Positions 1-42,567 of a DNA stretch of 64,000 nucleotides are shown in pieces (the first letter of the stretch is position 1; every line of letters starts with the position of its first letter). The notes beneath the pieces were generated by a model. It saw nothing but the letters and a program-made list of their open reading frames with translations, was not told the DNA's origin and did no database searches. The stretch lies in the IMG/VR virus record IMGVR_UViG_3300028173_000007, positions 25,588 to 89,587 of that record; one strand, given 5' to 3'. Made by a program: the position numbers and the translations under genes. Source of the DNA: a virus.

Positions 1-1
1 G

Positions 2-3000
2 TCCACGGTCCCGATCAAGAAGCTCGACGAAGACGAGCGGGACCTTGCGCTCGACGTGATCGGCCGGCTGCGCCGCGAGATCGGGAAGCTCAAGAGCGGG
101 CTCGAAGCCGGCGCGAAGGAAGAACAGCGGTTCGGCGGGCACTCGGTGTTCCGCACTCACCACGGGATGCACTCGTTCACGGCGCCCACCGGGGCCGACA
201 AGGGCAAGATCGCGGAGGCCTGGATCACGTCGCACCTTGAGCGCGTCGGGCACGAGGCCATGAAGGAGGCCGCCGACAAGCACTATGGCGGCGAGAACGA
301 AGACGCCCCCCACGAGCACGGCATCCCCGAGAACGTACTTCGCGCCGTCCGCGCCACGCTGCGCCCCGAGGTGGTGAGCGCCTGGAGCATGGGCGGTATC
401 AAGCTCATGGACGACGGCCAGGCGCAGAAGAAGGCCGCAGCGGCGGCCAGCGCCACCGGGAAGCAGGCCGTGGCCGACAAGGCCAAGCGCGCCGAGGCGA
501 AGAAGGCCCGCGCGGCCGAGAAGAAGGCCGCCCGCGCCGAGAAGGCGCGCGCCGAGGCGAAGCCCGAGGACGACCCGAAGCGGGGCCCCGACGGCGAGCT
601 CACCGAGAAGGAGAAGGAACAGCGCCGCGAGAACGCGCGGCGCCGCAAGGGGACCGGGAAGCCCGACGAGCCGAAGAAGGGCCGCGCCCCGGCCTTCGAC
701 AATGAGACCTGGGCGAAGAAGTACGGGAAGCACGCGGAGAACGTCGAGGTCGTCGGCGGGCACATGACCGTATGGCAGATGGGCCAGAGCGGGAGCATGG
801 GCACCCGCGGAAACTGGTACGTCACCGCGCCCAACGGGAAGAACGTCGGCCGGGCGGCCAGCGCGGAGAAGGCGCGGGAGGTGGCCGAGCAGAAGGCCGC
901 TCAGCACAAGCCGCTCGGCGCTGGCGAGGTGCTGGACGAGATCCGCAAGCGCGGGGGCCACGGCATCGCGGACGGGATGCACGCGGACGCGAAGGAACGC
1001 ACCGAGGGCCACTACACCGCCACGACGCACACCGGGAAGAAGATCCCCAAGGGCGGCCCAGGCGAGCACACCGAGGGCTGGAGCTCCGCGGAGCACTCCA
1101 GCGCGGCGGCCTGGCACAAGAAGCAGGAGGACGCCAAGCGAGCGGACCCGCGTTCAAGCCTCGAAGACGCGAACCACCACGGCCGCATGGCCGAAGCGCA
1201 CCTCGGGGCCTACACGGCGATCCACGAGGGGCGGACGAAGGCGCGGAAGGCGAAGGACTTGGCCGCGCTCAAGGCCGACCCGAAGGCGAGGTTCCACGAC
1301 GCCCTTGCGTCGACCGGGTACGGCCCCGGCGGCCGGGGCTATGAGGCCGTGCGGGACTACATCGGCCTCGCCAACAGCCCCGAGGAAGCGGGCACCCTGG
1401 CGGCCGCCCTCGACTACTCGGGAGAGGCGGGCGCGCGTAGCTTCGAGGCCCTGGCGGCCCGAGCTCTCAAGGTGTCCCCGGCCGAGCTCGTGACGCGCAA
1501 GCGCGCCCACGCAGCGGCCGGCGCGGCCGCCGGCGGCGCCAAGGGCGACGAGCCGAAGCGGGTCGGCGGGGAGCTCACCGAGAAGGAGAAGGAGCAGCGG
1601 CGGGAGAACGCGCGCCGGCGGCGCAAGTTCACCCCCATCGACCCGAAGAAGGCCGCAGTCCCCGAGCACCTCCGCGCGGGGACTGCGGCGCAGGTGGGCG
1701 AGAACATCGCGGCGAACGCCAAGCTCGCCAGCACCGACGACGAGCGACAGAACGTCCGCGATCACGTCTCGCGGCTACTCGCCGCGGGGACGATCACGTC
1801 CGAAGCCGGGGAGCGGGCGTACCTGGCCGCTGGGCTGACGAAGGACGGCGGATTCAAGGCGGCCGAGCCCGCCCCCAAGGCCGAGCCCGCCCCCAAGGGG
1901 CGGGAGGCCCGCCAGGCCGAACACAAGCGCCGAGGCGGCGAGGCGGCGACCGCTCACCAGGCGGTCGCCGACCACCAGAGCGCGTGGATCAAAGAGCAGG
2001 GCGGGTCCGCCAAGTTGCGCGAGCGCGGCATCCGGCGCATGGACCAGATCCCGGTGCCGGACGAGCTCAAGATGAAGCGCCAGAAGGCGCGGGATGCCGT
2101 TGCGGCGCACCACCACGAGAACGGCGGCGCGGGCGGCTTCACGGCCGCGGCGATCAACGACGCGACCGCCTTTATCAAGCGCAGCGAGGCCAGCGGCGGC
2201 AACTTCGAGGTGCTCAAGTGGGCCCGCGCGGTGTTGTCGCAGATCAAGGCGGCCGGCCCCAACGCCGTGCGCGACACCCCCCCGCACCCCGGCAAGGGGA
2301 GCGCCACCGCGACCGCAGAGAAGTTCCTCGCCCGGCTGCGCGACCAGAACAGCCATTGGGGCGGAGACGACCGCAACGACGTGGGCGATGCCATCGTGAA
2401 GGAGGGCCGAAACAAGCGGACGGGGGCCGCGGAGCACGTCGTCAACTTCACGACCCGCCGCGGCCGCGAGGACCACCAGCGGCTCGGGGCCATCGCGACC
2501 GGCTTCGGCGGCCAGATGGTGCGGCGCAAGGGCTTCGTGTTCGCCACGCCTGAGAAGGCGCGCGCCTTCGCGGAGGCGCACGCCATCCACCACGGCACGG
2601 GCTCGCCCTACAGCGCCAGCAAGGCGGCCCAGGAGCCCGAGGGCGGCAAGCGGGGGCCCGGCGGTGAGCTCACCCCCGACGAGCTCGCCCAGCGCCGGGA
2701 GAACGCCGCGAAGCGCAAGGGGACGGGAAAGCCCGACGACGCGCCCAAGGCGAAGCCGAAGAAGGCCGACGAGCCCAAGGCGAAGCACCACCACGACGGT
2801 TGGCCCGAGGACCAGTACCAGCGCGCGCAGGCCTTCCGGCGCGCGCTCTATGAGGGCCCGATCAAGCTCGGGAACGGCGGCCAGGTGGAGACCACCGACA
2901 CGGGAGTCAAGGTCACGCACCCCGACGGGCGTGAACACGAGATGCGCGTCCCCAGGATCGACCGCGACAACACGGCGATTGAGGCCGCGGAGAACGGCGG

Positions 3001-5554
3001 GCCCGTGATCGCGGCGCCCCTGGGCAGGATGGAGGGCTACACCGCGAAGGCCGACGGCCTCCCGGTGGGGGGCCGCGCTCACATCGCGTACAACAAGGGC
3101 CAGGACGCCCTCGCCAAGCTCCACGCGCACGCCAGCGCACGGGCCCGCGGTGAGAAGGTGGACGCCGGCGAGCTCCACGACGCGGCCGAGGCCGTCACGC
3201 GACACGCCCAGGCCGTCGAGGCGGCCCACACCCGCCGCGGGAAGCCGCGGGACGCGGCCCTGCGGAAGCGCGGAAGTCTGATCGCGCAGCGAGACGCCGT
3301 GCTCTCCAGCGCCCAGGATGCCGTCGCGTTCCACGGCCAAGGCAAGCCCGACCCCGAGGCCTTCCACGCCTGGGCCAAGGACAAGAGCCCCGAGAAGCTC
3401 GTAGACCTGGCCGCGAAGGTCACCGGGGAGGGCGGGCACCCCGCCGCAACTGAGCTCGCCTTCGGCAAGGTGCCGGCGCACGACATCGTGCGCGCCGCGA
3501 TGGACAGCATCGGCAAGACCGGCTCTCGTGCCCGAAGCATCCCCGCCACCATGCGGCGCGCGGTCCATGCCCTCGGCCACCTGGCGGGGGAGCACCGCGG
3601 ACACGAGAGCATGGCCCTCGGCGCGGCCTGGACCGACCTTCCCGACGCGGTGTTGGAGGGGATCAAGACCCGAGGCCGCACCGCAGACGGCAAAGACTGG
3701 CACCCCAACGGCCAGCGGAAGCGCGCCGCGGAGAACGCCGTCGGTGAGCTCCGCGCCCGCGACAACGCCGCCCAGCGGCTCGGCGTGCCCCGTGTCGAGG
3801 TTCAGCCGAAGGTGGGGGTCAACGGCACCGAGCTCAGTCACTTGGCGGCGGGCATGAGCGACCTTCGCAAGCGGGCCAGCGCCGGCGACAAGCACGCGGA
3901 GGGCGAGATCAAGATGCGCGGCATGGCCGCCGATCTCCTGGGCCACGGGAAGCACGTCCTCGACTCCCTGCACGACCACGGCGGCGTGCATGAGGTGTTC
4001 GGCGGCGACCACGAACACATCAAAGCGCCGGACGGGAGCACCTACCGCCGGAACACGGGCCACGCCGGCGAGACGACGTGGAAGAAGGTCGGCGCGGACG
4101 GCACGACCGGCGAGTCGTGGAACCGCGGGGCGAGCCGCGCGGCTCTCGAAAAGCAGCACGGCACCGACGGGTGGGGCGACGCCAACGAGACGAAAGAGCA
4201 GGCCCACGGCCGGCTACTGGCCGACCTGAGCACGCAAGCCGGGCAGACGAGGCGGACGCCTGGGCGAAAGGAGCTCAGCGGGTACGACAAGACGGGGATC
4301 GCGATCCGCCAGCACCTCGAAGGCTCGAAGCTCATCGAGCACGACGAGCACGGCCCCGTGTCGCTCGGCCAGGTGGCCGAGGTCATGGACCGGCACCAGA
4401 ACGTCGCGGAGGCCGGCTCGAAGCGCGACAACATCCCCTCGCCCAACTGGCCGGCGAAGCTCTCCGACGAGCGCCTGGGCGAGATCGTGAAGCACCGCAA
4501 CGAGCCCGGTCTACACGACCGCTTCCACCGGGAGCAGACCGCGCGCGCCGATCACGAGCTCCACCAGGGCGACCACGGCGATCACGAGGCGGCGAAGTCC
4601 GGTAACGGCTGGACGGTCAAGAAGGGCGGAAAGCACACCGGGATCAAGGCCGACACGAAGGGCGAAGCCCTGCACGCGGCCGGGATGCTCCACCGAGGGG
4701 ACTCGGGCGAGGACGTAGAGCACGCCCTCGCCACGGGCACGGCGAAGCGCGCGGTGGGCGTCTACAAGGAACGCCGGCGCCAGGCCGCCGCGGGGGCCGA
4801 CGCGGCCAGCCTGCACGCCATGACGCAGGCGACGGCGCCCGCCGCCGGTGAGTTCAACGTCGAGGCGAAGCCGCACACGACCCGAGCGAAGGCGGCCGCC
4901 CGCATGGCGAAGTTCGCCAGCACCGAGGATGATCGCGTCAACTTGCAGAGCTACCATGTGAAGGATGGGCACGCCACCGCGACGGACGGGCACCGCCTGG
5001 CCAGTATCCCCGTGAAGGGTGACCACGAGGACGGGGCGACCTACCGAGCTCACGGCGACGCGGTGCCGAAGCACATCGAGGGCGACGCCGAGAAGGTGGC
5101 CGCGTGGCACAAGGGCTGGGGCCGAGGCTCGCAGAGCGACGTGAACTTCCCCGACTACACGCAGGTCACGCCCAAGGGGCACCCCCACGTCGATCACGTC
5201 GATGCGAAGCACCTCACGACCGCACTTCGGATGCTCAAGCCGCACATGGACGGGAAGGTCCCCCACATGCGCCTTGAACGGAAGGACGGGAAGCTCTACG
5301 CCACCGCCGACGTGGGCCACGCGGTAGACGGCGGCGTGGCACGCATCCACCTGGGCGACACCTCGCACCCTGACGGGCAGGTGGGCATCAATCACAAGTA
5401 CCTCTCCGACGCGACGCAGGGCGCAAAGGGCACGGTCCAGATCAAGACCGGGAGCATGAAGCCCCGAGCCGACGACAGCGACCACGGCCTCGCGCCGATG
5501 GCCGTACACCGCGAGGACGGCGAGAAGCACATCATCATGCCGCTGCGCGTGTGA
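2..5554 (+). CDS. Giant (>1850 aa, 5'-truncated) low-complexity polyvalent-type protein with a C-terminal DnaN (beta sliding clamp) domain II/III-like region; probable internal head/ejected protein
   Basis: Frame open from base 2 (STVPIKKLDE...), so the start is upstream of the window. K/A/H/E/G-rich with internal repeats. The last ~215 aa (from 4904) carry clamp signatures ATDGHRL, FPDY, GIN.KYL.D and terminal IIMPLRV. Lies just upstream of the protease-capsid genes. Confidence 0.8.
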   Translation, partial: STVPIKKLDEDERDLALDVIGRLRREIGKLKSGLEAGAKEEQRFGGHSVFRTHHGMHSFTAPTGADKGKIAEAWITSHLERVGHEAMKEAADKHYGGENEDAPHEHGIPENVLRAVRATLRPEVVSAWSMGGIKLMDDGQAQKKAAAAASATGKQAVADKAKRAEAKKARAAEKKAARAEKARAEAKPEDDPKRGPDGELTEKEKEQRRENARRRKGTGKPDEPKKGRAPAFDNETWAKKYGKHAENVEVVGGHMTVWQMGQSGSMGTRGNWYVTAPNGKNVGRAASAEKAREVAEQKAAQHKPLGAGEVLDEIRKRGGHGIADGMHADAKERTEGHYTATTHTGKKIPKGGPGEHTEGWSSAEHSSAAAWHKKQEDAKRADPRSSLEDANHHGRMAEAHLGAYTAIHEGRTKARKAKDLAALKADPKARFHDALASTGYGPGGRGYEAVRDYIGLANSPEEAGTLAAALDYSGEAGARSFEALAARALKVSPAELVTRKRAHAAAGAAAGGAKGDEPKRVGGELTEKEKEQRRENARRRRKFTPIDPKKAAVPEHLRAGTAAQVGENIAANAKLASTDDERQNVRDHVSRLLAAGTITSEAGERAYLAAGLTKDGGFKAAEPAPKAEPAPKGREARQAEHKRRGGEAATAHQAVADHQSAWIKEQGGSAKLRERGIRRMDQIPVPDELKMKRQKARDAVAAHHHENGGAGGFTAAAINDATAFIKRSEASGGNFEVLKWARAVLSQIKAAGPNAVRDTPPHPGKGSATATAEKFLARLRDQNSHWGGDDRNDVGDAIVKEGRNKRTGAAEHVVNFTTRRGREDHQRLGAIATGFGGQMVRRKGFVFATPEKARAFAEAHAIHHGTGSPYSASKAAQEPEGGKRGPGGELTPDELAQRRENAAKRKGTGKPDDAPKAKPKKADEPKAKHHHDGWPEDQYQRAQAFRRALYEGPIKLGNGGQVETTDTGVKVTHPDGREHEMRVPRIDRDNTAIEAAENGGPVIAAPLGRMEGYTAKADGLPVGGRAHIAYNKGQDALAKLHAHASARARGEKVDAGELHDAAEAVTRHAQAVEAAHTRRGKPRDAALRKRGSLIAQRDAVLSSAQDAVAFHGQGKPDPEAFHAWAKDKSPEKLVDLAAKVTGEGGHPAATELAFGKVPAHDIVRAAMDSIGKTGSRARSIPATMRRAVHALGHLAGEHRGHESMALGAAWTDLPDAVLEGIKTRGRTADGKDWHPNGQRKRAAENAVGELRARDNAAQRLGVPRVEVQPKVGVNGTELSHLAAGMSDLRKRASAGDKHAEGEIKMRGMAADLLGHGKHVLDSLHDHGGVHEVFGGDHEHIKAPDGSTYRRNTGHAGETTWKKVGADGTTGESWNRGASRAALEKQHGTDGWGDANETKEQAHGRLLADLSTQAGQTRRTPGRKELSGYDKTGIAIRQHLEGSKLIEHDEHGPVSLGQVAEVMDRHQNVAEAGSKRDNIPSPNWPAKLSDERLGEIVKHRNEPGLHDRFHREQTARADHELHQGDHGDHEAAKSGNGWTVKKGGKHTGIKADTKGEALHAAGMLHRGDSGEDVEHALATGTAKRAVGVYKERRRQAAAGADAASLHAMTQATAPAAGEFNVEAKPHTTRAKAAARMAKFASTEDDRVNLQSYHVKDGHATATDGHRLASIPVKGDHEDGATYRAHGDAVPKHIEGDAEKVAAWHKGWGRGSQSDVNFPDYTQVTPKGHPHVDHVDAKHLTTALRMLKPHMDGKVPHMRLERKDGKLYATADVGHAVDGGVARIHLGDTSHPDGQVGINHKYLSDATQGAKGTVQIKTGSMKPRADDSDHGLAPMAVHREDGEKHIIMPLRV

Positions 5555-5938: not shown

Positions 5939-6790
5939 GTGACCATGCCAGCCCCCAGCCCCACAACCCGCCTTCACGGGTGGATGCCGTGGGAGGCCTT
6001 TTTCAAGGCCGACGCGCCCAAGGGCAAGCGGCTACGCATTCGCGGCATCGTGAGCACCGAGCACCGAGACCTACAAGGCGAGGTGGTCGTGCAGGCCGGC
6101 CTCGACTGCTCCCCGATCTCGCAAGGCCGCGGGTGGTTCAACGACAATCACCGCCGCGAGACGGGCCAGGAGCTCGGCATCCCGACGAAGGTGTGGCGAA
6201 CGAAGGTCAAGGGCGTACCGGCGACGGCCGTCGAGGGCTACCTGCTCGACACGCCCGAGGGCCGGCGCGTGTGGACGAACGCGCGCGCTCTCGCGGGGAC
6301 CGGCCGCAACTACGGTTTCAGCGTCGAGGGCGCGATCCTCGAACGGGACGTGACCGACCAGAAACGGATCGTCCGCTCGGTTGCCCGGCAGATCGCGATC
6401 ACCCGTTGCCCGGTCAACCCGAACACCGAACTTGAACCAATCGCCAAGAGCCTCACGGCGCACATGGAGAAGGCCGTCCGCTTGGGCGCCGCCTTCCCTG
6501 GCGCCAGCGGCCAGCCTGGCCAGATGGGCGCGCTGGTGCCGCAGGACCTCGGCCGTCGGGCCGACGGCCACGACGACGAAGTGCAGTTCTTCGGGGGCCT
6601 GGCCTTCGATTGGGCCGCGTTCGCGCGGTCTCACAGCGCATCGGACGCCCTCAGAAACGGGCGCCGTCGCACACGTCCCCGCCTGGAGAAATCCCAGGCA
6701 GTCGCCTATGTCCGCGCGCGGCTCCCCGGTGCCACCGACGCGCAGATCAGAACCATCCTCGCCGGCGCGTCCGGCGCAACTGGAGCGTGA
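5939..6790 (+). CDS. Prohead (capsid maturation) protease
   Basis: IRGIVSTEHRDLQGE, FNDNH, GFSVEG and IAITRCPVNPNT motifs typical of SPO1/K-like prohead proteases; position before scaffold and capsid. Confidence 0.88.
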   Translation: MTMPAPSPTTRLHGWMPWEAFFKADAPKGKRLRIRGIVSTEHRDLQGEVVVQAGLDCSPISQGRGWFNDNHRRETGQELGIPTKVWRTKVKGVPATAVEGYLLDTPEGRRVWTNARALAGTGRNYGFSVEGAILERDVTDQKRIVRSVARQIAITRCPVNPNTELEPIAKSLTAHMEKAVRLGAAFPGASGQPGQMGALVPQDLGRRADGHDDEVQFFGGLAFDWAAFARSHSASDALRNGRRRTRPRLEKSQAVAYVRARLPGATDAQIRTILAGASGATGA

Positions 6791-6792
6791 AC

Positions 6793-7590
6793 ATGGAGAT
6801 CCTGCCCTACCTCAAAAGCATGGCGAAGGGTGGCGACAAGGCCGCGCTGGCGTGCCTCAAGTCGATGGCCGGTGACGGCAACGACGACGCGGCCGATGCG
6901 GTCCACGAGCTCGAAGGCGGCGACGTGGACGGCGGGAACGGCTCGGAGGCCGGCGACGCCCTCAACGGCGAGTTCGGCAAGTCGGAGGACTTCGGCCCCC
7001 TGTTCGACCTCGACGCCCTCGACAACGAGATCGCGGACGCGGAGCCCTTCGCCAAGTCGGAGGACTACCCCGAGGTGCCCGACGCCCGCGAGATCATCGG
7101 CGCCCAGGATGGCGTCGCGGCCGCGATGGCGATGGACGCCGACGATCTCGTCGAGGGCTTCGTCAAGGGCGTGTCGGAGGCCATCGACCGCCTCGGTGAC
7201 GCGACCCTGTGGAACGGGACCGGCGTGGAGGCGATGGCGAAGTCCGTCACCGCCATTGGCGAGATCCTGCACGCGCAGACCGACGCCCTCGGCGAGCTCC
7301 GCAAGGGCATGACCGAGCTCCGCGCCACCTTCCTGAGCCGCGGCGCCGGCCTGGCCGGCGTGGACGCGGCGCAGCCCGCGGCCCGCCCCCGTCTGCGCAA
7401 GTCGCTGGACGACGACGCGCTGGGGGCCCCCAGCGCCGGTGACGACCTGAACACGTTGCGGAAGTCGCTCCGCACCATGCGCGGCGCGACCTCCCGCGAC
7501 GACACGGCGAAGCAGGCCATGATCGGCGAGGCCCTCGAAGACCTGACCATCGGCGAGACGGCGCGTGCGCGCGCCCTCGTGGCCGGCTGA
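6793..7590 (+). CDS. Putative scaffold/head assembly protein
   Basis: Acidic helical protein between protease and capsid, with many xxKS motifs; ATG 6793 after GGAG. Confidence 0.65.
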   Translation: MEILPYLKSMAKGGDKAALACLKSMAGDGNDDAADAVHELEGGDVDGGNGSEAGDALNGEFGKSEDFGPLFDLDALDNEIADAEPFAKSEDYPEVPDAREIIGAQDGVAAAMAMDADDLVEGFVKGVSEAIDRLGDATLWNGTGVEAMAKSVTAIGEILHAQTDALGELRKGMTELRATFLSRGAGLAGVDAAQPAARPRLRKSLDDDALGAPSAGDDLNTLRKSLRTMRGATSRDDTAKQAMIGEALEDLTIGETARARALVAG

Positions 7591-7665: not shown

Positions 7666-9171
7666 GTGGAAATTGCGGACATTTTCGGCGGACAGGCCGA
7701 GGTCACCGGCGCCGGCGTCGCGGCGGCGCTCGGGAAGGGCTCGGTGGGCGAGCTCCTCAAGTCGATGAGCGTCGGGGCGACGTTCCCGGCCCAGATCGGG
7801 GACCTCAACCCCGGTCAACTGATGGCGACGGTCCCCCAGGACCTCGACGACGTGCTCCACAACATGAGCTTCGACCCGCGGAAGCACACCTTCCTGTTCC
7901 GCGAGACCCACCACGACAAGGTGTGGAGCACGGTTCACCAGTACGTCCGCAAGCAGTCGCAGGGCTCGCTCGGCCGTCGGTTCATGTTCCACCAGGAGGG
8001 CGGCCTGCCGCCCGAGTCGGACAGCACCTACACGCTGGAGCAGGTCGCGATGAAGTTCGCCGGCTCCGTCCGGCGGCTCCCGATCCAGGCGCGGCTCGTG
8101 AAGTCCATCGCGGGTAACACCGTGAAGGCCCAGAACAAGGACGGGGCCGAAGAAATCCTCGCCGGCATCGAGTGGGCGATGCTCTACGGCAACCCGACCG
8201 TGAACCCGATGACCTTCGAGGGGATCAAGCAGTCGATGATCCGCGAGGGGATCAGCCTCGACGCCGGCGGCATCGCGCCCACCGAGGCGCTCATCGATGA
8301 GGGCATGGAGCGGATCACCGAGCGGCCCAACTGGGGCTACCCGACCGACATCCTGTGCAGCCCCCGGATGCACAAGACGATCCGGCAGGTCTACGCGCCC
8401 CGAATGCGCTCCATGCTCGGCAAGGCCTTTCACCCCAACTACAGCTTGAAGGGCATGACCTTCGATCACTGTGCCGAGGGTGACGAGGTGCGGATTCGGA
8501 AGCACCCGCTCGCCATCGAAGAAGCCCCCGTGTGCGACGAGCTCGGGGCCGGCCCCGACCCGAGCAAGCGCCCCGTGCTCCCCATCGTGATCAGCCAGCC
8601 CACGCCGGCCAACGACGCGGACAGCCTGTACGGCAACGGCCAGGCGGCGCGCGCCGGCGGCGTGGTCAAGTACCGCGCCGTGGCCATCAACGAGTACGGG
8701 ATGAGCGTCCCCCTGACCCTCAACGACGCCAACATCGGCGCCGGCCAGTCCGCGCCCTTCACGATCAAGGATGGCGCCGTCCCCGGCGCGCTGAACCGGG
8801 CGACCGGCTTCATCATCTACCGCACCGAGCCGGGCCTGCTCGCGCCCACCGCCACGCAGATCGACGAGATCAGCGCGGCCAGCGGCGCGAACGTGACCTA
8901 CACCGACCGCGCCGAGAACCTGCCGGGGTGCTCCGACCTGTTCCTCCTGAGCAACAACCGCGAGGCCTTGTGCTGGAAGCAGTTGCTCCCCTTCTTCAAC
9001 TTCCCGCTGGGGAACCTCGACACGTCCTACCGCTGGGCGCTGCTCCTGTTCGGGGCCCTCAAGATCGCGTTGCCCCGGCACCACGCCGTGATCCGCAACG
9101 TGAAGCCCGACCTCGCGCTGCGCCAGGTCTTCGGGCCCGGCGATCAGAGCTCGGCCCAGGCCAACCTGTAG
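7666..9171 (+). CDS. Major capsid protein (SPO1/A511/K-type HK97 fold with Ig-like insertion)
   Basis: 501 aa; LLKS near the N-terminus, IEWAMLYGN...FEGI, insertion KYRAVAINEYG...FIIYR, C-terminal LLLFGALKIALPRHHAVIRNV; GGAG RBS. Confidence 0.88.
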   Translation: MEIADIFGGQAEVTGAGVAAALGKGSVGELLKSMSVGATFPAQIGDLNPGQLMATVPQDLDDVLHNMSFDPRKHTFLFRETHHDKVWSTVHQYVRKQSQGSLGRRFMFHQEGGLPPESDSTYTLEQVAMKFAGSVRRLPIQARLVKSIAGNTVKAQNKDGAEEILAGIEWAMLYGNPTVNPMTFEGIKQSMIREGISLDAGGIAPTEALIDEGMERITERPNWGYPTDILCSPRMHKTIRQVYAPRMRSMLGKAFHPNYSLKGMTFDHCAEGDEVRIRKHPLAIEEAPVCDELGAGPDPSKRPVLPIVISQPTPANDADSLYGNGQAARAGGVVKYRAVAINEYGMSVPLTLNDANIGAGQSAPFTIKDGAVPGALNRATGFIIYRTEPGLLAPTATQIDEISAASGANVTYTDRAENLPGCSDLFLLSNNREALCWKQLLPFFNFPLGNLDTSYRWALLLFGALKIALPRHHAVIRNVKPDLALRQVFGPGDQSSAQANL

Positions 9172-18656: not shown

Positions 18657-21151
18657 GTGCGAGCTCGGTGCAGACGACGAAGGGCTCAACCCACGTCCCC
18701 GGCGTCTATAACGAAACGAAGGTCGTCGGCATCCCCCTCGCGACGCCTGGCGCAAAGGTGCTCGTGCTCATCGGTGAGGCCGAGGGCGCGGAACCGGGCA
18801 AGATCCACACCCTCACGCGGCCGGGCGCGGCCCGCGCGCTCTTTCGCTCGGGTGACCTGCTCGACGCGGCCCTCATGGCCTTTGACCCGAGCCGCTCGGC
18901 GAAGATCACCGGCCGCCCGGCGCAGGTGTTCGCGTACAAGACGAACCCCGCCACGCAGTCGGCCGTCACCCTCGGGAACGGGGACGGTGACGCCCTCGTG
19001 CTCACCAGCCGCGATTATGGCCTGTTCACGTCGCGCATCGGCGTTGACCTGACCTTGGGGACGAACCAGGGCTTCAAGGTGGACGTGGAGCTCGACGGGA
19101 AGACCGAGAGCGCCGACGACCTCGGCGGCGTCGCGGCCTTCACCGCCGACTACGCCACCACCGGCGACGCCGCCACCATGCAAATGGTCGTGAGCGACAC
19201 CGAGATCCGCGCGGACTACACGGTGGCCCGTGCCGGCCTGGCGATCACCGACCCGGCCGCGGCCGGACTCGTCGAGGTCCTGAGCTCAAGTGCCTACGAC
19301 GCGCACCAGCGCGTCACCGTCTATGGGCTGGACGCCGGCGGCGATCCGGTCTTCGAGGTCTTCGCGCTCAACGGCGTGACGGCCGTTGTCGGGTCGCAGA
19401 CCTTCGGCCAGGTCACCGGCTGGCGCGTGGATGGCGCCACCGCTGGCGTGATCACGGTGCAGGAGGACGGCGCGGGCGGCGTGCTGGACACCACCGCGGC
19501 CACGCTCAGCGTGGCGGCCACCGGCAAGGTGGAGGTGGTGAGCACCGACGCCGACGACACCGGCCGGATCATCGTCGAGGGCCTCTCCGCGGCCGGGAAC
19601 CCCATCGCGGAGACGCTCACCCTGGCCGGCCTGGGCGTGGTGGCCGGCGCGCTCGTCTTCGACAAGGTGACGCGCGCGCGCCTCGTGGGCGTGGCCGAGG
19701 GCAACGTCTCGGTGCGGCAGAACAGCGACAACGCGGTCGCCTTCACCATCGCCGCGGGCAGTCTCACCGCGGGCGTGGACATCAACGAGGGGCTGTACCT
19801 CCCCGACGCGATGGCCTTCGACTCGGTGATCAGCACCATCCTTGACGCGGCCAGCGTGGGCGCCGTCCTCGTGGTGCGCGGGCTGAACCGGGCCGGCGCC
19901 GCGGTGGCCGAGAAGGTGGCCCTGCTCGACTCGGCCGTGCTCACCACCGCCGACGTGGTGCAGGTGACGCAGATCGAGCTCGGCGCCCTTCCGGTGGCCC
20001 GCACGGTGACCCTCTCGGGAACCGCGGCGAGCTCGAAGGTGGCCGAGCGGCCGCTACTGCGCGACGCCGTGGCCTACTTCAACGCCCTTCCCGGCTTCGC
20101 CGCGGCGACGGCCTCCCCGGCGGCCTTCAAGGTGGTGGACCTCGACAGCGCCAGCCAGTCGATCCGAAGCGCGACCCCCGTCGACTTCGGCGCCGATCTC
20201 GTCGCCCTCGTGGGGTGGTTCAACGCTTCGAGTCGACTCGTCTCGGCCGCGGCCAGCGCCGGCGCCACCGGGGCGCCCTCAGTCCTCGCACAGCGCGCCT
20301 ACCTCGTGGGCGGGGCCGAGGGCACCACGGCGATGGATCATTGGCGCGCGGCCCTCCTGGCCGCGAAGAAGGCCACCCTCGACGCGGCCTTCAAGGCCTC
20401 CCGCCAGGTGATCGTTCCCCTGAGCGACTCCGATGCGGTCCACAACCTGATCAACGGCGAGCTCCGCGCCCGCGACGGCGTGCATGAGGCCGCCGCGTTC
20501 CTCGGGCTCGCCACCACGAAAGACAAGGCCGCGATCAAGACCGCGATCCGCGCCGGGAACAACCGGCAGATCGCGTTCAGTGCGCAACAGGTGGTGGCCT
20601 TCGACGACAGCGGCGCCGAACGCACCATGCCGGCGTGGTCCTGGCCCGTGCTCCTGGGCGCGCTCATGTGCGGCAGCCGCACGGCCGAGCCGCTCACCGA
20701 GGCCGAGGGCAACACGATCCGCACGGTGAACCATGCGTCGTGGGATGCGGTCGACGACATCGAGGAAATGATCGCGGCCGGGCTGATCGTCGTGCATGGG
20801 CGCCAGGTGGTGCGCTCGGTGTCCTCGTGGCTGGAGGACGACAATCGGTACTACACCGAGGTCTCCACGAATGAGAGCCTCGACGACTCGGCCTTCAACA
20901 TGCGGCGCGCGCTGCGCCCGCTGGTGGGGGCGCCGGACTTCGACGGGAGCGCCTCGACGCTCCGCTCCGCGGCCTTGGCCGAGCTCGAACGGCAGGTGAC
21001 CCGCGGCGAGATCAAGACCTTCAACCCCGAGGGCGTGGTCGTGACGGACATCGGGGACGGCTTCGACGTGGACTATGAGATCGAGCCCGTCGAGCCGATC
21101 AACTTCATCCGGCCGACCGCCTACGCTCAGCCGCTCTCTGTCCGCATCTAG
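18653..21151 (+). CDS. Contractile tail sheath protein
   Basis: N-terminal HVPGVY...LIGEAEGAEPG...ARALFRSGDLLDA; C-terminal VDYEIEPVEPINFI. Confidence 0.92.
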   Translation: MSASSVQTTKGSTHVPGVYNETKVVGIPLATPGAKVLVLIGEAEGAEPGKIHTLTRPGAARALFRSGDLLDAALMAFDPSRSAKITGRPAQVFAYKTNPATQSAVTLGNGDGDALVLTSRDYGLFTSRIGVDLTLGTNQGFKVDVELDGKTESADDLGGVAAFTADYATTGDAATMQMVVSDTEIRADYTVARAGLAITDPAAAGLVEVLSSSAYDAHQRVTVYGLDAGGDPVFEVFALNGVTAVVGSQTFGQVTGWRVDGATAGVITVQEDGAGGVLDTTAATLSVAATGKVEVVSTDADDTGRIIVEGLSAAGNPIAETLTLAGLGVVAGALVFDKVTRARLVGVAEGNVSVRQNSDNAVAFTIAAGSLTAGVDINEGLYLPDAMAFDSVISTILDAASVGAVLVVRGLNRAGAAVAEKVALLDSAVLTTADVVQVTQIELGALPVARTVTLSGTAASSKVAERPLLRDAVAYFNALPGFAAATASPAAFKVVDLDSASQSIRSATPVDFGADLVALVGWFNASSRLVSAAASAGATGAPSVLAQRAYLVGGAEGTTAMDHWRAALLAAKKATLDAAFKASRQVIVPLSDSDAVHNLINGELRARDGVHEAAAFLGLATTKDKAAIKTAIRAGNNRQIAFSAQQVVAFDDSGAERTMPAWSWPVLLGALMCGSRTAEPLTEAEGNTIRTVNHASWDAVDDIEEMIAAGLIVVHGRQVVRSVSSWLEDDNRYYTEVSTNESLDDSAFNMRRALRPLVGAPDFDGSASTLRSAALAELERQVTRGEIKTFNPEGVVVTDIGDGFDVDYEIEPVEPINFIRPTAYAQPLSVRI

Positions 21152-24218: not shown

Positions 24219-25904
24219 ATGATGGGAGACCTGCCCGTCAAGGGGCACGACAAGTTGCGGCCAGGTGCGCAGGTGGTAGACCACGGGCACCGCTACACGC
24301 CGCGGTTGACCTTCTACAGCTACGCCAGCGGCGAGCTCGAAGCGGGCGCATACGTTACGGGCTTCGACGTGTCCACCGATCTGAGCAACCCCGAGGGCCA
24401 GTGGTCGGCCACGCTCAAGCGGCGGATCTTCCCGCTGGGCGACAGCGACGCCCAGCCGGACGTTGACCGCGATTGGGGCGCGCTCCTGAGCCCCGGCGAC
24501 TGGTGTCTGATCACCGTTCACGACGGCCACCACGGGTGGCCGCTTCGCCTGGGCCGCATCGACGATATCCACCGCTCGCGCGAGGCCGGCCAGGGCGGCG
24601 TGACGCGCTACACCTACAGCGTGAGCGGCTCGAACGCGGGCTCATGCCTCACGAAGCACGAGGTGGTGGTCCTCCCGCAGTTCAAGGGCGCGACGGCGGC
24701 CGACCTGCTCCGCGACTTGGGCCCGTTTCACCGCTCCCTGGGCCGGGTCCTGTTCCGCTTCGGGAAGGATGGCGTGGCGCCGCACGAGCTCGTGCCGTCC
24801 CTGCTCTACTTCTTCCTCGGCCGCTACACCGGCGAGACCTACGGGCGCTCGGCGGCGCCGGTCTTCACCCTTCCGCCGACGATGCCGGTCAAGCCCATCG
24901 GCCGACCGGAGGACGTGTTCGGGCGGCTGGGGGACGGCTGGCCCTTGGGCGACCTCCTGCGCTTCGAGACCGAGCGCCTCGACGGGCGCGTCGTGATCCG
25001 AGAGCTCATGGCCGGACTGCCCGACGGCCAACGGCTGTGGGACTACCTCGGGAGCTTCTCAGACCCCGACGTAAACGAGTTCTTCGTCGACTTCCTCCCG
25101 AACTCCTGGGAAGTGGGAAAGTCTATGTCCGTCGAGGACTTCACCCACGACGGCGGCGACATCGACTTCTCGCCGCGCGCGGTGCTGCGGCGCCGGCCCT
25201 TCCCGTCGGAGGCCTACATGACGGCCCGCGCTATCGGCTTCGGCGTGGAGCCCATCGGGCCGACCGGCGTCGAGCGGTGGCAGCGTCTCCCCTGGACGAT
25301 GATCGACGAGCGCCAACTGCAATCGGACGAGACGGGGCGCAGCGACCGCGAGCGGTTCAACTTCTACTTGTCCCTTCCGCACTCCAGCTTCGGCGGCCAC
25401 CCCTACTCGCTCGCCCTCGGCTCGGGCTCGCGCGGCGAGCTCCCGATCACGGCGGGGACCCGCAACGCGGTGGGCGAGGGGACCGACCTTGACCGCGCCG
25501 AGCGTCACGGGTGGCGCAGGCGGGAGATCCGCTCGCCCTACCTCCCGACCGACCCGAGGGCGCACACCGCGCAATACTACGTCTGGAGCCGGCTACTTGC
25601 CGACTGGAATCAGGGGAACGCCGAGCGATGGTCGGGGACCCTGACCACCGGCCGGATGCTCCCCGGCGTGCGGGTGGGCGAGCGGCTCCACGTCTTTCGG
25701 GACGGCCGCTCGCGCGTCGAGGGGTACTACATCGAGCGGGTGTCGCACTCGTGGCGGCGCGCGGGGACCGGCGAGCGCACCAGTACAACGATGTCCGTCA
25801 CGAGGGGCAGCGAAGACCCGCTCGGCGGCTACAGCCCGAAGGGCTGGGGGGCGGACACCGACGGCGCCGACCTGCGGCGGATCCTGATCGGAGACACCGC
25901 GTGA
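24219..25904 (+). CDS. Baseplate hub protein
   Basis: Beta-rich; ends VRVGERL...YYIERVSHSW...TTMSVTRG like hub proteins. Confidence 0.65.
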   Translation: MMGDLPVKGHDKLRPGAQVVDHGHRYTPRLTFYSYASGELEAGAYVTGFDVSTDLSNPEGQWSATLKRRIFPLGDSDAQPDVDRDWGALLSPGDWCLITVHDGHHGWPLRLGRIDDIHRSREAGQGGVTRYTYSVSGSNAGSCLTKHEVVVLPQFKGATAADLLRDLGPFHRSLGRVLFRFGKDGVAPHELVPSLLYFFLGRYTGETYGRSAAPVFTLPPTMPVKPIGRPEDVFGRLGDGWPLGDLLRFETERLDGRVVIRELMAGLPDGQRLWDYLGSFSDPDVNEFFVDFLPNSWEVGKSMSVEDFTHDGGDIDFSPRAVLRRRPFPSEAYMTARAIGFGVEPIGPTGVERWQRLPWTMIDERQLQSDETGRSDRERFNFYLSLPHSSFGGHPYSLALGSGSRGELPITAGTRNAVGEGTDLDRAERHGWRRREIRSPYLPTDPRAHTAQYYVWSRLLADWNQGNAERWSGTLTTGRMLPGVRVGERLHVFRDGRSRVEGYYIERVSHSWRRAGTGERTSTTMSVTRGSEDPLGGYSPKGWGADTDGADLRRILIGDTA

Positions 25905-27022
25905 AGCCACCGTTCCGCTATCAGGAGGCCACGCCGCGCCGGGTGCGCGGGCGTCCCCCGCGCCAGGTGAAGCAGACCTTCCCCACGCGGGGGGTCGTCA
26001 TGGCGGTTCACTTTGCAGACGAGACCGAGGGCGGCGAACTCCCGTCCGCGGCCTACCACCACCCCGCCCAGGTGACGTGCGACGTGTTGACGTGGTGGGG
26101 CGGCGCTATCTACGACGTGCCGGTCATGCAACGCGGATCCTCGGTGGGTGACGCGGAGCTCTGGACGCCGCGGCCGGCGACGCGGACCCTCGACGGATCC
26201 CCGCTCGTGTGGGAGCAGACCCCCGAGGACGCCCCGGCCGACCCCGAGAACACCGACGGGGAGTGGGTCGTCGTCGCGTTCTTCGACGGGGACCCCTCGG
26301 CGCCCTACATCGAGGGGAGCATCCCCCACCCCAGGACGCGGCGCGCGCACGGTGGCGCCCAGGCCCGCGAGGCCTTCGACCCCACGGCCGACGGCTCTAT
26401 GCCGATCACACCCCACGGGCATGAGCGGTACACCGCTCACGCGGGGTCTGTGCTGCGCGTGGACGCTTCGGGGAACGTCCGCTTGGACACGCGCCAGGCC
26501 GGGGAGGACCAGACCGGAGAGGGCGCCCCGAGCGGCGGTCATGTTGACGTGGATCTCCGCTCGGGCGCCTGGGTCACCCTTCGATACGACGGCGGGCGCC
26601 AGGTGCGCTTGCGGCTCGACGGCGACGGCACCCCGCAACTGGATATCTTCGCAGGGGATCGGCCGCTGGCGCGGCTCTCGGACTACATCGAGATCAACGC
26701 CACCACGTCGCCCCTCTGGGCCGCATTCATCGCGGCGGTGGTCGCCGCACACCAGACGGTCATTCCGCCGCTACAGGCCGCAGCGAACGCCCAGGGAACC
26801 ACGGTGGACGCCCTCGCAGCCTGGGCGGCAACGCCGGCCCCGCCCAACAACGGCCGGCCCCCGTTCGTCGCGCCTGACGTGGGCGAGGTGCTCCCTGTGC
26901 CGCCGCCGGCGGCGGGCCCGTTCCCGGCGCCATACGATCAAACGCCCGGCGGCGCCCCGCCGGCGGGCTTCCAGGCGGTCGGCCAGGTGGTCACCGCGAG
27001 CTCGCAGATCCGGGGGACCTGA
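25901..27022 (+). CDS. Baseplate central spike (OB-fold) protein
   Basis: GVVMAVH...VTCDV...GEWVVVAFFDGDPSAPYIEGSIPH, a gp5/gpV N-terminal OB pattern. Confidence 0.65.
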   Translation: MKPPFRYQEATPRRVRGRPPRQVKQTFPTRGVVMAVHFADETEGGELPSAAYHHPAQVTCDVLTWWGGAIYDVPVMQRGSSVGDAELWTPRPATRTLDGSPLVWEQTPEDAPADPENTDGEWVVVAFFDGDPSAPYIEGSIPHPRTRRAHGGAQAREAFDPTADGSMPITPHGHERYTAHAGSVLRVDASGNVRLDTRQAGEDQTGEGAPSGGHVDVDLRSGAWVTLRYDGGRQVRLRLDGDGTPQLDIFAGDRPLARLSDYIEINATTSPLWAAFIAAVVAAHQTVIPPLQAAANAQGTTVDALAAWAATPAPPNNGRPPFVAPDVGEVLPVPPPAAGPFPAPYDQTPGGAPPAGFQAVGQVVTASSQIRGT

Positions 27023-28795
27023 ATGGCAGTCACACACAGCGAGCGCCCGAGCCGGTGGCGGTTCACCTACGCGATGGAGCTCGTCGCCATCGACGGCAGC
27101 GGCCGCGGCGCGAACCGGGTGCTGAACCTCCCGATCAACCCGACTTCCGTCGCGTACCGGAGCACGCCCGGCAACGATGAGACGTGGACCGCTGGCGGCG
27201 TAGCCCTCGAAGATTCGGGATTCGTGTCTCGCGATATCACGATCCAGGGCTCGCCAGGCCTGGAACCGAAACGGGGGTGGAAACTGGAGAGCACCGACCC
27301 GCACAAGCCGGAAACGGGCTTCACCTTCCGAGACGGAAACGAGCTCTTTGCGGAGCTATGGCGGTGGTTCGAGTTCTACGCCGAGCTCAAGCGCCGACAA
27401 GACGTTGCGAGCAAGTGGTTCATGGTGTGGCACGACTTCCGCCGCGGCTGGCATTGGGTCGTGCAGCCGAAGGAGTGGGACACCTCGCGGGAGGCGAAGC
27501 AGCACCGGCTACACCACCCGTTCGAGTTCCGGCTCAAGGCCGTTTCGGACTACGACGCGCTCGCCCTGGGCGGCGTGGCGGGCTTCTTCGCAGACGTGCG
27601 GAGCGCCACCGACGAGATCGCCGGGCTCCTGCTCGACGCGGCCGGCTACCTGGCGGACATCGACTCGTTTCGCTCGGAGGCCGACCAGACGTTCCTCGGC
27701 GGCATCCAGCAGGTGATCTCGGCGGGCGGCCGCATCCTCGACGGCCTGGCCGCGGTCTCCGCTGGCGTGCGGGACACCCTCAACTTTGAGAACCGACTCG
27801 CGGCGCAGATGGCGACGCTCGTGGACGGGCTCGCCTACGAGCTCAGTGCGGCCTTCGGGAAGCACCGAGACGGCGCGGCCGCGCCGGGGGCTGGTGACCC
27901 TTGGACGCCTGGGAACCAGCCGGCGAGCCGCGCGGTGGCGGCCTACCGGGCCACGCAGCAAATGTCGCAGTCCCTCGACCGGATGAGAGCTCGCCGCGAC
28001 CTGTGGGAACCGGACCTTCCCGAAGCGCGCGCCCGGCGGCGCGCGCTTCGAGCGGGCGCAACGGCCCTCAGTGACGCGGAGGTGGCCGCGCCCGGCGTGC
28101 TGGCCATCGGTGCCCGCGCCACGGCCGGGTCGGCGTACACGCGCGCTCTGGCGCGCAGACGAGAGGCCGAGCGGGAGAGCTTGCCGACCTACACGGGGAC
28201 TCGGGCCTACGTCGTGGCGCCGGGGGACACCCTGCTCTCGATTGCGCTCGAAGAAGTGGGGGCCCGCGACGCATGGACGGATATTGCGGCCATCAACAGC
28301 CTGCGGCACCCCTACATGAGCCGAGCTCGCACGCCGGGCACGGTGGCGCCTGGGGATACGATCATCGTGCCCACCTTCGGGACCTCGAAGCCGTCCCCCA
28401 GGGGCACGAGGGCTGAAATCGAGCGGGAGGCCCTCGGGGTGGACTTCGAGCTCACCGCCGGCGGGCTCGTCTACAACGCCGCCGGCGACGGCTACCGAAC
28501 GGTGGAAGGTGTGGCCTGCTACCTGCAATCCATCAACGAGGTGCGCTTCGGTACGAAGTTCGGGGAGAACCTCACCTGGCCGTCCGTGGGCATCCTGGCC
28601 CCGGTGGGCTCGCCCAATCGCGACGGGACACCATCGGCTGTGGCACTCTCTGTGCGCCGCGCGTGCCTCACCGACCCGAGGACGGCCGAAGTTGTGGATC
28701 TCGAATTCATCGACGGTGGAGACACCATCGACGTAGTGGCCACGCTCCGACCCCAGGGGTTTACGGGTACGCTCACCGTCCAGCGGAGGGCCTGA
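27023..28795 (+). CDS. Baseplate protein: tube-initiator-like N-terminus + LysM + gp25-like C-terminus
   Basis: LPINPTSV N-terminus; LysM YVVAPGDTLLSIA...WTDIAAINSL...PGDTIIVP; C-terminal CLTDPRTAEV. Confidence 0.65.
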   Translation: MAVTHSERPSRWRFTYAMELVAIDGSGRGANRVLNLPINPTSVAYRSTPGNDETWTAGGVALEDSGFVSRDITIQGSPGLEPKRGWKLESTDPHKPETGFTFRDGNELFAELWRWFEFYAELKRRQDVASKWFMVWHDFRRGWHWVVQPKEWDTSREAKQHRLHHPFEFRLKAVSDYDALALGGVAGFFADVRSATDEIAGLLLDAAGYLADIDSFRSEADQTFLGGIQQVISAGGRILDGLAAVSAGVRDTLNFENRLAAQMATLVDGLAYELSAAFGKHRDGAAAPGAGDPWTPGNQPASRAVAAYRATQQMSQSLDRMRARRDLWEPDLPEARARRRALRAGATALSDAEVAAPGVLAIGARATAGSAYTRALARRREAERESLPTYTGTRAYVVAPGDTLLSIALEEVGARDAWTDIAAINSLRHPYMSRARTPGTVAPGDTIIVPTFGTSKPSPRGTRAEIEREALGVDFELTAGGLVYNAAGDGYRTVEGVACYLQSINEVRFGTKFGENLTWPSVGILAPVGSPNRDGTPSAVALSVRRACLTDPRTAEVVDLEFIDGGDTIDVVATLRPQGFTGTLTVQRRA

Positions 28796-28798
28796 TCC

Positions 28799-30202
28799 AT
28801 GTTCGAGCTCCAGACTGACCGGGAGGTGCGGGAGCGGCTCGTCGCTCGTGTCGTCGCGCGGTCGGTCCTCTCCGACCTGGCACCGGGCGATCCCATGCTA
28901 CAGCTTCTCGGGGCGGCCGCCCTGGAGTTCGAGGGGGTGTATCTGGCCGCGGCCGAGATCCTCGCCCTGTTCAACCTCGACGACGCCACCGGGGAAGACC
29001 TCGACGAGCGCGGCGCCGAGGTCCTGCCCGACGGGCTCCCCAGGGGCGGGGCCTCTCGGGCCGTCGGCCAGCTTCGGTGGACCGCGCCGAACGCCGTCGC
29101 CGTCGAGGTGCCGATCCCGGCGGGCACCGTCGGCGCCCGCGCGGGGTCGCCGCCGACGAACTACGTCACCACCGAGGCCGGGCGCATCCCGGTCGGGTCC
29201 ACGCAAAGCGAGGCCCTCACCGGGGGGGACATCGCCGCGGCCGCGGCCGCGCCAGGTGGCGCCGCCAACGCGGCCATCGACTCGGTGCAGGTGTTCGTCG
29301 GGGCCGTGCCCAACGCGACCATTCTCACGAACCCCGCGCCCTTCCAGGGGGGGCGCGACGCCGAATCCGACGCGGACTACCGCGACCGGATCCGCGCCCA
29401 CCTGCGGACCCTCTCGCGGTGCATCCCCGAGGCCCTCGAACAACGCGCCCGCTCGGCCGAGGTCGCCGGGCGTCGCGTGACCGCGGCGCGCACCTGGGAG
29501 GATCCCGTGAACCGGGGGCACGTCGTGGTCTACATCGACGACGGTAGCGGCCAGCCGGCCGAGACCGCGGCGGCCGCGGCGGTGGTGTTCACCGACGCGG
29601 TGGCTGGGGCGGTGGGGGGCGAACAGGAGTTCTACGTCCCCCTCTGGCCCGTGTTCGGCAGCCTGACCGTGACGCACACGCCCAGCGGCGGGCCCGCCGC
29701 GGTGCTCACCGAGGGCACCGACTACGTTCTGATCGGCTCTCGCGGCCTCGTGTGGCTCACGTCCTCGGCCTTCCCGACCGGCCTCGCGACCGGGGCCAAG
29801 TTGGAGGTCTCGGCGTACACGCACTATGCGGGGCTGATCCGAGAGGCTCAGCGGCGAATCGAGGGGGACCCGGCAGATCGGGTGAACTACCCGACTTGGC
29901 GCGCGGGTGGCGTGGTGGTCGACGTGCTCCCCCCCGTGCTTCGCCAGGTGACCGTGACGGCGCACGTTGTGGCCGACGTGGACGCAGACCGAGAGGCCGT
30001 GGTCGCGAACGTCCGCCGGGCGCTGGCGGCCTATGTGAACGGCCTTGGCATCGGCCGCGCCGTCGTCCATTCCGAACTCGTGGAGCGGGCGATGGGCGTT
30101 GCGGGCATGTACGATGTGACCATCGAGGCGCCGGCGGCGAATATCCCCGTAGCCTTCAACGCCGTGGCGCGCGTCACCACGGCCAACTTGACCGTTTTGT
30201 AG
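28799..30202 (+). CDS. Baseplate J-like wedge protein
   Basis: ATGEDLDE, IPAGT, GGRDAESDADYRDRI, YVNGLGIG motifs. Confidence 0.9.
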   Translation: MFELQTDREVRERLVARVVARSVLSDLAPGDPMLQLLGAAALEFEGVYLAAAEILALFNLDDATGEDLDERGAEVLPDGLPRGGASRAVGQLRWTAPNAVAVEVPIPAGTVGARAGSPPTNYVTTEAGRIPVGSTQSEALTGGDIAAAAAAPGGAANAAIDSVQVFVGAVPNATILTNPAPFQGGRDAESDADYRDRIRAHLRTLSRCIPEALEQRARSAEVAGRRVTAARTWEDPVNRGHVVVYIDDGSGQPAETAAAAAVVFTDAVAGAVGGEQEFYVPLWPVFGSLTVTHTPSGGPAAVLTEGTDYVLIGSRGLVWLTSSAFPTGLATGAKLEVSAYTHYAGLIREAQRRIEGDPADRVNYPTWRAGGVVVDVLPPVLRQVTVTAHVVADVDADREAVVANVRRALAAYVNGLGIGRAVVHSELVERAMGVAGMYDVTIEAPAANIPVAFNAVARVTTANLTVL

Positions 30203-30211
30203 GGGGCGCAG

Positions 30212-39730: not shown

Positions 39731-40038
39731 GAGACCAGCCGCGCGGTGAAGGCCCCGACGCCATTCGCGATCAAGAACATCGCGACCTGCGCGGCCTCCT
39801 TGGCCCCGCATTGGATTCGGTCGGGGTCGGCACCTTCGAGCTCGCCTTCGGCGTAGCAGACGAAGCCGCCGGTGGTCACGAGGGCCTCGGGGTCGAGGTC
39901 CACCTGGGCGCCCGGCAGCGTGTCTACCTGGGCGCGGAAGGCGACCGCGGCCTTTCGCGTGAACCCGAGGGCCCGCAGCACCTCCGCGAAGCGGGACGGG
40001 GCGCAGTCGTAGGCATAGACGCAGACGACGGGGATCAT
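39727..40038 (-). CDS. Hypothetical protein
   Basis: GGAGG RBS, ATGA overlap with sbcC. Confidence 0.55.
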   Translation of the reverse strand: MIPVVCVYAYDCAPSRFAEVLRALGFTRKAAVAFRAQVDTLPGAQVDLDPEALVTTGGFVCYAEGELEGADPDRIQCGAKEAAQVAMFLIANGVGAFTARLVS

Positions 40039-42527: not shown

Positions 42528-42567
42528 CGGTTCCCCAACCGGCTAGAGTGGTCGTGTGGCGCCCAGC

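Follow-up and report, generated by a model that had tools for sequence, protein, structure and literature searches.

The 64,000-nucleotide window analysed here (positions 25,588 to 89,587 of IMG/VR virus record IMGVR_UViG_3300028173_000007) opens inside the gene of a giant phage protein, the end of which (window 4868-5551) encodes a homologue of the β-clamp DnaN, consisting of the first half of clamp domain II and all of domain III. The window is the terminal 64 kb of an 89.6-kb viral contig with ~71% GC and an estimated completeness of 63%. By open reading frame (ORF) tracing the giant is 2114 amino acids (aa) long (contig 24797-31141), and its last 1850 aa lie at window positions 2-5554 (1..5554 as a feature, plus strand); the beginning of the gene, 790 nt ahead of the window, overlaps a MuF-like gene at the stop of the latter, and the ORF was judged to be real with a third-position GC content (GC3) of 0.93. 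Searched as a whole against Pfam at E<=0.01, the giant matched no family and showed no recognisable enzymatic domain. A first-pass annotation, made from the letters alone, had read a clamp partner-binding pocket into this C-terminus, and the motifs that it quoted (FAS.EDDR.NL, ATATDGHRLA, NFPDYTQV, VGINHKYLSD and IIMPLRV followed by the stop) are all present in the translation, within the last ~237 aa. The clamp identity of the module stands, but its start does not, since it begins ~12 residues earlier than had been proposed, at window position ~4868.

The C-terminus of the giant matches phrog_947 (“DNA polymerase processivity factor”) with E 7e-13 over profile positions 136-365 of 368, as well as TIGR00663 (dnaN) with E 6.8e-8 and 31.8 bits, which does not reach the curated cut-off of 137.65; similarly, PF02768 scores 11.2 bits on the module against a cut-off of 27. 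A custom profile of 55 full-length DnaN sequences gives 93 bits (E 7e-31 in a one-sequence search), with giant residues 1887-2114 covering profile positions 129-364 only. DnaN chains of the PDB are matched weakly by the single sequence and with E 8e-17 by a profile of 18 family members. No match came from a word-indexed homology search that used the domain as a single query, or from a search of PDB sequences with the 516 conserved aa that precede the module, and a look-up with the homologue P0057 returned sub-threshold leads only. At the level of structure, a single-sequence AlphaFold 2 (AF2) prediction of the last 297 aa was discarded (predicted local distance difference test, pLDDT, 39), and the final model of the last 320 aa, which used a 42-row alignment, reached a pLDDT of 91.4 and a predicted template modelling score (pTM) of 0.82. 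Residues 96-320 of this model superpose on residues 133-366 of E. coli β with a VIA Z score of 19.6 and a root-mean-square deviation of 3.0 Å over ~200 aligned residues, so that the DnaN-family match and clamp fold anticipated in the first pass were both recovered. Foldseek aligns the model with E. coli-type clamps at E 2e-13, the best rows being mostly peptide- or inhibitor-bound clamps, and the overall identity of the module to E. coli β is ~20%. Upstream of residue 96 the model forms a β-hairpin and three helices, which are not a clamp domain.

The module is about one and a half clamp domains, not two. Domain I (PF00712) had been reported as lacking upstream, and indeed a search of the contig found no match to it, nor did profile positions 1-128 match anywhere in the 2114-aa giant at E values as high as 100 without HMMER filters. 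The first half of domain II (4868..5053, plus strand, as for all features of the giant; delimited by profile alignments to E. coli DnaN, AF2 and VIA) is made of a helix, three strands and a short fourth one, and holds the equivalents of R152 and L155 together with the ATDGHRL segment at 4979-4999, which corresponds to E. coli A171-L177. It is followed by a remnant of the second half (5054..5146), recognised from spacing counts, alignment A1 and phrog_947, in which one helix survives (AF2 model 166-175) and the three-stranded sheet is deleted; in alignment A1 the missing part is the second β-α-β-β-β half of the domain. The spacing between GHRL and FPDY is accordingly short, with the 49 residues already counted in the first pass, as opposed to 54-90 (mostly 55-70) in full-length clamps, and in relatives of the module it is mostly 23-36, with a few longer cases, two of which reach 68-70 through a hydrophilic insert. 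The same deletion splits the profile matches of the giant into positions 129-~188 and ~236-364, and recurs in five related viral records, in which only positions ~125-187 and ~235-366 of phrog_947 are matched. The inter-domain linker NFPDYTQVTP (5147..5176, from the alignment and the pocket mapping) has residues identical to P242 and V247 and a glutamine in place of R246. Domain III (5177..5551, from the alignment, VIA and the profile) is complete, with identical residues at N320, Y323, M362, P363 and R365, and its pocket strand HIIMPLRV (5528-5551) forms the C-terminus of the protein.

Despite the loss of these parts, the partner-binding pocket is kept. In the E. coli clamp, subsite I of the pocket is built by R152, L155, T172, G174, H175, R176, L177, P242, R246, V247, V360 and M362, and subsite II by H175, N320, Y323, V344, M362, P363, M364 and R365 (PMC11139829). 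Mapping by HMMER alignments to E. coli DnaN shows that, among the 18 distinct positions, the giant has the identical residue at 15 and a conservative one at two, the exceptions being R246 to glutamine, V360 to isoleucine and M364 to leucine; at V344, also replaced by leucine, the residue varies among clamps too. Among 18 family members the mean conservation is 0.79 in the pocket columns and 0.37 in the 219 remaining ones (p 4e-9, Mann-Whitney test); the pocket columns are thus the best conserved of the family, and many of the invariant columns are pocket positions. By contrast, the equivalents of I272 and L273, the pair that closes the ring and whose replacement by alanine (I272A/L273A) renders E. 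coli β monomeric, are proline and histidine in the giant and vary across the family within an indel-rich region. Because the pocket columns are conserved while these positions vary, selection has kept the docking site and released the ring interface. The earlier proposal of a retained pocket without the parts for normal ring formation thus agrees with the pocket counts, with the absence of domain I and of the second half of domain II, and with the substituted ring-closing pair. Judged from these sequence features, the C-terminal ~225 aa of the giant are a reduced derivative of the β-clamp that lacks the ring-closing parts and is probably monomeric.

Compared to DnaN itself (PF00712/PF02767/PF02768, TIGR00663; structures 2POL, 1MMI and 3Q4J), the module is alike in sequence and fold over E. 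coli residues ~133-366, likewise ends the protein with the C-terminal strand and has the identical residues of the pocket described above. DnaN, however, is a chain of ~366 aa with three tandem domains, whereas the module is without domain I and has the second half of domain II deleted or degenerate. The DnaN dimer is closed head-to-tail through the interface of domains I and III, including I272/L273, and these are parts that the module does not keep. Furthermore, the module occurs as a C-terminal fusion in a 2114-aa protein, the gene of which lies among head genes rather than replication genes. Trimeric clamps of the PCNA and T4 gp45 type have two complete domains per protomer, as opposed to only ~1.5 in the module.

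Clamp fragments that lack the ring are also found as stand-alone genes. A tblastn search of cultured phages with residues 126-366 of E. coli DnaN found short genes in phages of Salmonella, Escherichia, Klebsiella, Shigella, Vibrio and Burkholderia, such as gp19 of the Dhillonvirus (Escherichia phage) vB_EcoS_WF5505 (184 aa; L048:3935-4489) and gp15 of Burkholderia phage Bcep781 (193 aa; L049:3998-4579), the latter annotated as “DNA Pol III b subunit fragment”; both lie inside the head block on the strand opposite to the head genes. Like the module, these mini-clamps are ring-less head-block genes that keep ATDGHRL, FPD(Y/W) and the IMPMR strand, but they are small, independent and opposite-strand genes (~170-195 aa) instead of fusions. 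The truncation differs as well: in the mini-clamps domain II is whole (profile 138-245) and domain III incomplete, while the family of the giant shows the reverse, with all of domain III and half of domain II. For WF5505 gp19, the profile matches are 138-245 and 312-364, skipping ~246-311 of domain III; the alignment of Bcep781 gp15 to the DnaN profile is ambiguous. BLAST between the mini-clamps and the giant's family found no similarity, and a tree including the two mini-clamps, with too few shared columns, did not settle their relation to that family. By their alignments, the two designs have no more in common than the pocket-building elements: half of domain II (the first), the linker and the C-terminal portion of domain III. 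Some records label stand-alone clamp fragments as “RusA-like Holliday junction resolvase”, apparently in error. The novelty assumed in the first-pass annotation is therefore lower, since stand-alone, pocket-only fragments are already annotated in cultured phages; what is new here is the different truncation, the separate clade and the fusion to a probable capsid cargo.

An exhaustive HMMER search of 1.84 billion representatives returned 58 matches at E<=0.001, about half of which are ordinary ~360-aa clamps aligning through domains II-III only, and the remainder are truncated like the module of the giant. The truncated forms mostly make up the C-terminus of proteins of 459-1787 aa, apart from an internal copy (P0031) and a small number of short forms from short contigs. 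The survey of homologues for the same fusion, which had been suggested in the first pass, found nine loci in IMG/VR, in all of which the frame is intact and the module stands at or near the end of ORFs of 426-2834 aa, over a GC range of 47-72%. In a maximum-likelihood tree on the shared columns (quick search, midpoint root), 27 truncated sequences form one clade with a Shimodaira-Hasegawa-like approximate likelihood ratio test (SH-aLRT) support of 98, so that on the sequences at hand the truncated, fused clamp module is a rare clade of uncultured phages. The module, an N-terminal domain of the giant described below and a low-GC family member had no tblastn match among 50,697 cultured phage records; plasmids yielded ordinary dnaN only, a single-protein scan of 185,579 species genomes found no family member, and a degenerate DNA pattern for DGE.H.IMPMR, searched in species-representative genomes, hit one contig of a metagenome-assembled genome. 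Phage proteins of ~211-217 aa in BFVD match the AF2 model with template modelling (TM) scores by target of 0.69-0.76, one of them being the “PolIII beta-like processivity factor” of Bacillus phage vB_BcM_Sam46, and these may be further short clamp derivatives.

The first-pass annotation also placed the gene among head genes, and this setting is both confirmed and recurrent. The gene order is DNA-modification/methyltransferase proteins, an InPase protein, portal, two small genes, MuF-like gene, giant, prohead protease, scaffold, major capsid protein and tail genes, where the MuF-like protein matches PF04233 with E 3e-5, below the cut-off. Directly downstream of the giant lies the gene of the prohead (head maturation) protease (5939..6790, plus strand; phrog_1028, E 9e-28), followed by a probable scaffold gene without a family match (6610..7590, plus strand), assigned from its position between protease and capsid genes and from synteny with loci L008, L009 and L011, and by the major capsid protein gene (7666..9171, plus strand; phrog_752, E 2e-49). 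The order portal, MuF, clamp-ended protein, protease, scaffold and capsid is also present in L008, L009, L011 and L014, and is rearranged in L007, L013 and L015. The major capsid protein is ~28% identical to those of its closest cultured relatives, SPO1-like and related Bacillus phages, and the phage represents a deep-branching, high-GC, contractile-tailed lineage.

At its other end the giant carries an N-terminal “tag” of ~150 aa (L004:94-570, within contig G000:C1 959-31141), which is common to six proteins of this phage (303-2114 aa, the giant included) at 37-58% identity, with the consensus KGAGHKY.RR...WRY.Y...GH.EV...V..HDE.G. The five other copies (L002:6893-7387, L005:55-525, L003:1001-1483, L003:4818-5312 and L002:11405-11809) belong to proteins among which are a DNA methyltransferase and a Mom-like protein. 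In IMG/VR the tag stands near the N-terminus of ORFs of 0.4-2.8 thousand aa in 31 loci; of the 28 loci that have a tagged ORF, 21 hold homologues of portal, MuF, protease or capsid genes next to it, and the tag is often carried by several neighbouring genes. Neither Pfam nor PHROG holds a family that matches it. Because this common domain sits on diverse large proteins beside portal and MuF, it is a candidate capsid-targeting domain. The shared tag and the location of the gene between MuF and prohead protease suggest that the giant is most likely cargo that would be loaded into the capsid and released with the DNA into the next host.

Such a fate has been argued for polyvalent proteins, which are proposed to be packaged and injected (Iyer, Burroughs, Anand, de Souza and Aravind, 2017; PMC5512222). 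As with these, the giant is large, built of several modules and encoded together with portal, MuF and capsid genes, and its predicted fate would also resemble that of the head-packaged effectors P1 DarB and T4 Alt. Polyvalent proteins combine disparate effector and enzymatic domains; the giant has no Pfam domain, but relatives with the same clamp module carry the polyvalent-protein domains LPD25, ART-PolyVal and InPase. In contrast to the arrangement described for polyvalent proteins, neither the tag nor MuF is fused to the giant in that manner, MuF being a separate gene upstream. The survey of 131 polyvalent-protein domains does not mention a clamp or DnaN domain (PMC5512222), and a literature search on clamp domains in polyvalent or MuF proteins, or on defence systems acting through DnaN, found nothing relevant. 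The structural matches of the AF2 model include the 1394-aa UniProt entry A0A6J7W9M3, described by “large polyvalent protein-associated domain”. InPase is fused to the clamp module in the homologue P0179 and to the tag and a methyltransferase at L014:4208-8641, and in the present contig an InPase domain (PF18823, E 5e-33) is encoded at 19724-20725 (L002:14125-15123), just upstream of the portal gene.

The first-pass annotation had seen no phage polymerase in the window, and this holds for the whole contig and for five related records (G001-G005, corresponding to loci L008, L014, L009, L013 and L015; G001 is 96% complete and G002 has terminal repeats), in which neither a family A, B or C DNA polymerase, as represented by three Pfam polymerase models, nor a full clamp was found. 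Because no recognisable replicative polymerase is encoded, these phages probably depend on the Pol III of the host. Other genes of the window encode SbcC and SbcD (40035-43860, minus strand) and a DnaC-like helicase loader (46905-47966).

The module is read here as a means of hijacking host clamp-partner proteins for the incoming phage genome, a reading that comes close to an even chance but stays tentative. The giant would be loaded into the capsid and ejected with the DNA into the next host, where the module, reduced to the elements of a pocket for clamp-binding motifs (CBMs), namely the first half of domain II, the FPDY linker and domain III with the IMP(M/L)R strand, would act as a “reader” of peptides of the Q-L-x-L-F type. 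In doing so, the pocket would capture host clamp partners, most plausibly Pol III α and/or the clamp-loader subunit δ, which would then be tied to the incoming phage genome or diverted to phage use. Along this path we infer that the giant is packaged and ejected, that the pocket binds peptides, which ligands it binds, and that these are recruited instead of sequestered. That the ligand is defined by the host, in the form of canonical CBMs, is argued by a pocket that stays nearly identical to that of cellular clamps in phages ranging from 47 to 72% GC.

Several points weigh against this hijacking scheme. Residue R246 of the pocket is glutamine in the giant and variable in the family, and M364 is leucine; furthermore, the cleft is taken to be open for peptides from residue identity and the global superposition only. 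Cellular DnaN would greatly outnumber the few tens of copies that might be injected, and a fragment that is not a ring cannot confer processivity. No cultured relative turned up among the 50,697 phage records, and the presence of the protein in virions is a prediction; with its gene in a late operon, a role late in the producing cell is possible. Finally, the contig is only 63% complete, and the three Pfam models would miss polymerases of an unusual kind, PrimPol for example.

The pocket and the head context are equally consistent with a decoy or trap, in which the injected pocket sequesters host CBM proteins without recruiting them to the phage DNA. Such a trap could titrate the scarce δ subunit or Pol III α, thereby switching off host replication, or soak up clamp-directed repair or defence factors and clamp-targeting toxins. 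Indeed, δ binds monomeric β ~50-fold tighter than the ring (KD ~7.5 nM and ~460 nM, respectively), so that a ring-less fragment could trap δ efficiently. Interference of phages with the clamp also has a precedent in Gp168 of phage Twort, which binds the DNA channel of β; the common theme is an attack on clamp-centred host replication, but Gp168 binds the host clamp itself, whereas the module imitates the docking site and would bind the clients of the clamp. However, a decoy that blocks replication globally would be self-defeating, because the phages seem to have no polymerase of their own and probably need host Pol III. Moreover, the few copies per virion would be outnumbered by the cellular clamp, and no CBM-based defence system was found in the literature. 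A decoy is thus considered unlikely, although it retains an appreciable share of the probability; the capture of clients for phage use is favoured over a simple decoy because no family A, B or C polymerase is encoded.

A ligand among the phage's own proteins is improbable. In this case, the pocket would bind a peptide of a cargo, portal, MuF or scaffold protein and serve capsid loading, the organisation of cargo or a late action, in line with the position of the gene in a late head operon. However, no CBM-like motif was found in the six tagged proteins, the giant among them, or in MuF, and a CBM motif search of 12 head-module proteins returned three loose hits in probably folded regions, which is at the chance level (2.1 expected). 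The near-identity of the pocket to that of cellular clamps over phages of such different GC is predicted by a universal host ligand, not by a phage ligand that co-evolves with the pocket, and targeting to the capsid is more simply ascribed to the N-terminal tag.

Even less probable is a novel oligomeric clamp, in which units of 1.5 domains, perhaps released by proteolysis, would close into a ring (four units giving six domains, or a PCNA-like arrangement) and serve host Pol III as a true processivity factor on phage DNA. In its favour, the model has a clamp fold, trimeric clamps with two domains per protomer occur in phages, the “PolIII beta-like” phage proteins of ~211-217 aa reach TM 0.76 at best against the model, and the β-β-α unit upstream of the module, co-modelled with it at pTM 0.82, might stand in for the missing elements. 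On the other hand, most family members have only 23-36 residues in place of half of domain II, positions of the ring interface are not conserved, the module is tethered to 0.4-2.8 thousand aa of other protein, and the gene lies among head genes and not replication genes. A PCNA-like trimer of two-domain units, as raised in the first pass, is weakened by the count of 1.5 domains instead of two and by the unconserved interface positions. That the module is a decaying relic of a captured dnaN fragment without present function, to which its scores below the curated cut-offs of TIGR00663 and PF02768 could point, is highly improbable given a clade that is conserved in widely divergent phages and shares one architecture and the invariant residues of the pocket, a confident AF2 model, and reading frames that are intact at all loci found.

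Beyond the hijacking by a single module, a wider scenario would have polymerase-less phages load several large proteins by means of the common, hitherto undescribed ~150-aa targeting domain, one of these proteins ending in a minimal CBM reader that would, on ejection, seize host Pol III or the clamp loader on behalf of the entering genome, with the fused and the stand-alone families having arisen convergently; in its entirety this is put forward as a conjecture more apt to be wrong than right by a wide measure.

Two further elements of the giant lie upstream of the clamp module. The small β-β-α unit (“GW.V.K..G...TKGEAL”) and the three helices that follow it occupy window 4592..4876 on the plus strand, and in the AF2 model they comprise strands 6-11 and 14-20 and helices 23-34, 39-48 and 50-79, with pLDDT 84-96. 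The β-β-α motif precedes the clamp module in many family members (P0003, P0005, P0006, P0009, P0010, P0011 and P0057), where the variant consensus is “GW.V.H..G...T...A” and a long helical hairpin follows; unit and module are modelled jointly with confidence. Three dispersed repeats of ~30 aa (569-680, 1553-1655 and 2648-2750, plus strand; direct-repeat family D1, and translation) are positioned between unrelated modules and have the consensus GGELT.KE.EQRRENA.RRKG... or G.GELT..E..QRRENA.RRKGTGKPD, and a motif resembling them is found in the homologue P0010. From their sequence, these repeats could be processing sites, linkers or basic DNA-binding patches.

Ring-less clamp fragments have been present in phage annotations for ~20 years without an assigned function. 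The placement of one of them on a protein that is very probably capsid cargo suggests a time and a place of action, namely the entry of the DNA. Because two differently cut families share only the pocket-forming elements, the pocket appears to be the part that has been selected. If the tag proves to be a general capsid-targeting domain, it would be useful for loading cargo into phage heads, and the module would, if the proposed reading is true, provide a naturally minimised, monomeric scaffold of a pocket that is an antibiotic target (the griselimycin site). If the pocket binds the clamp-binding motifs of the host, the module would represent a new class of delivered host-takeover module, and it would reveal the way in which polymerase-less phages take over the replicase of their host.

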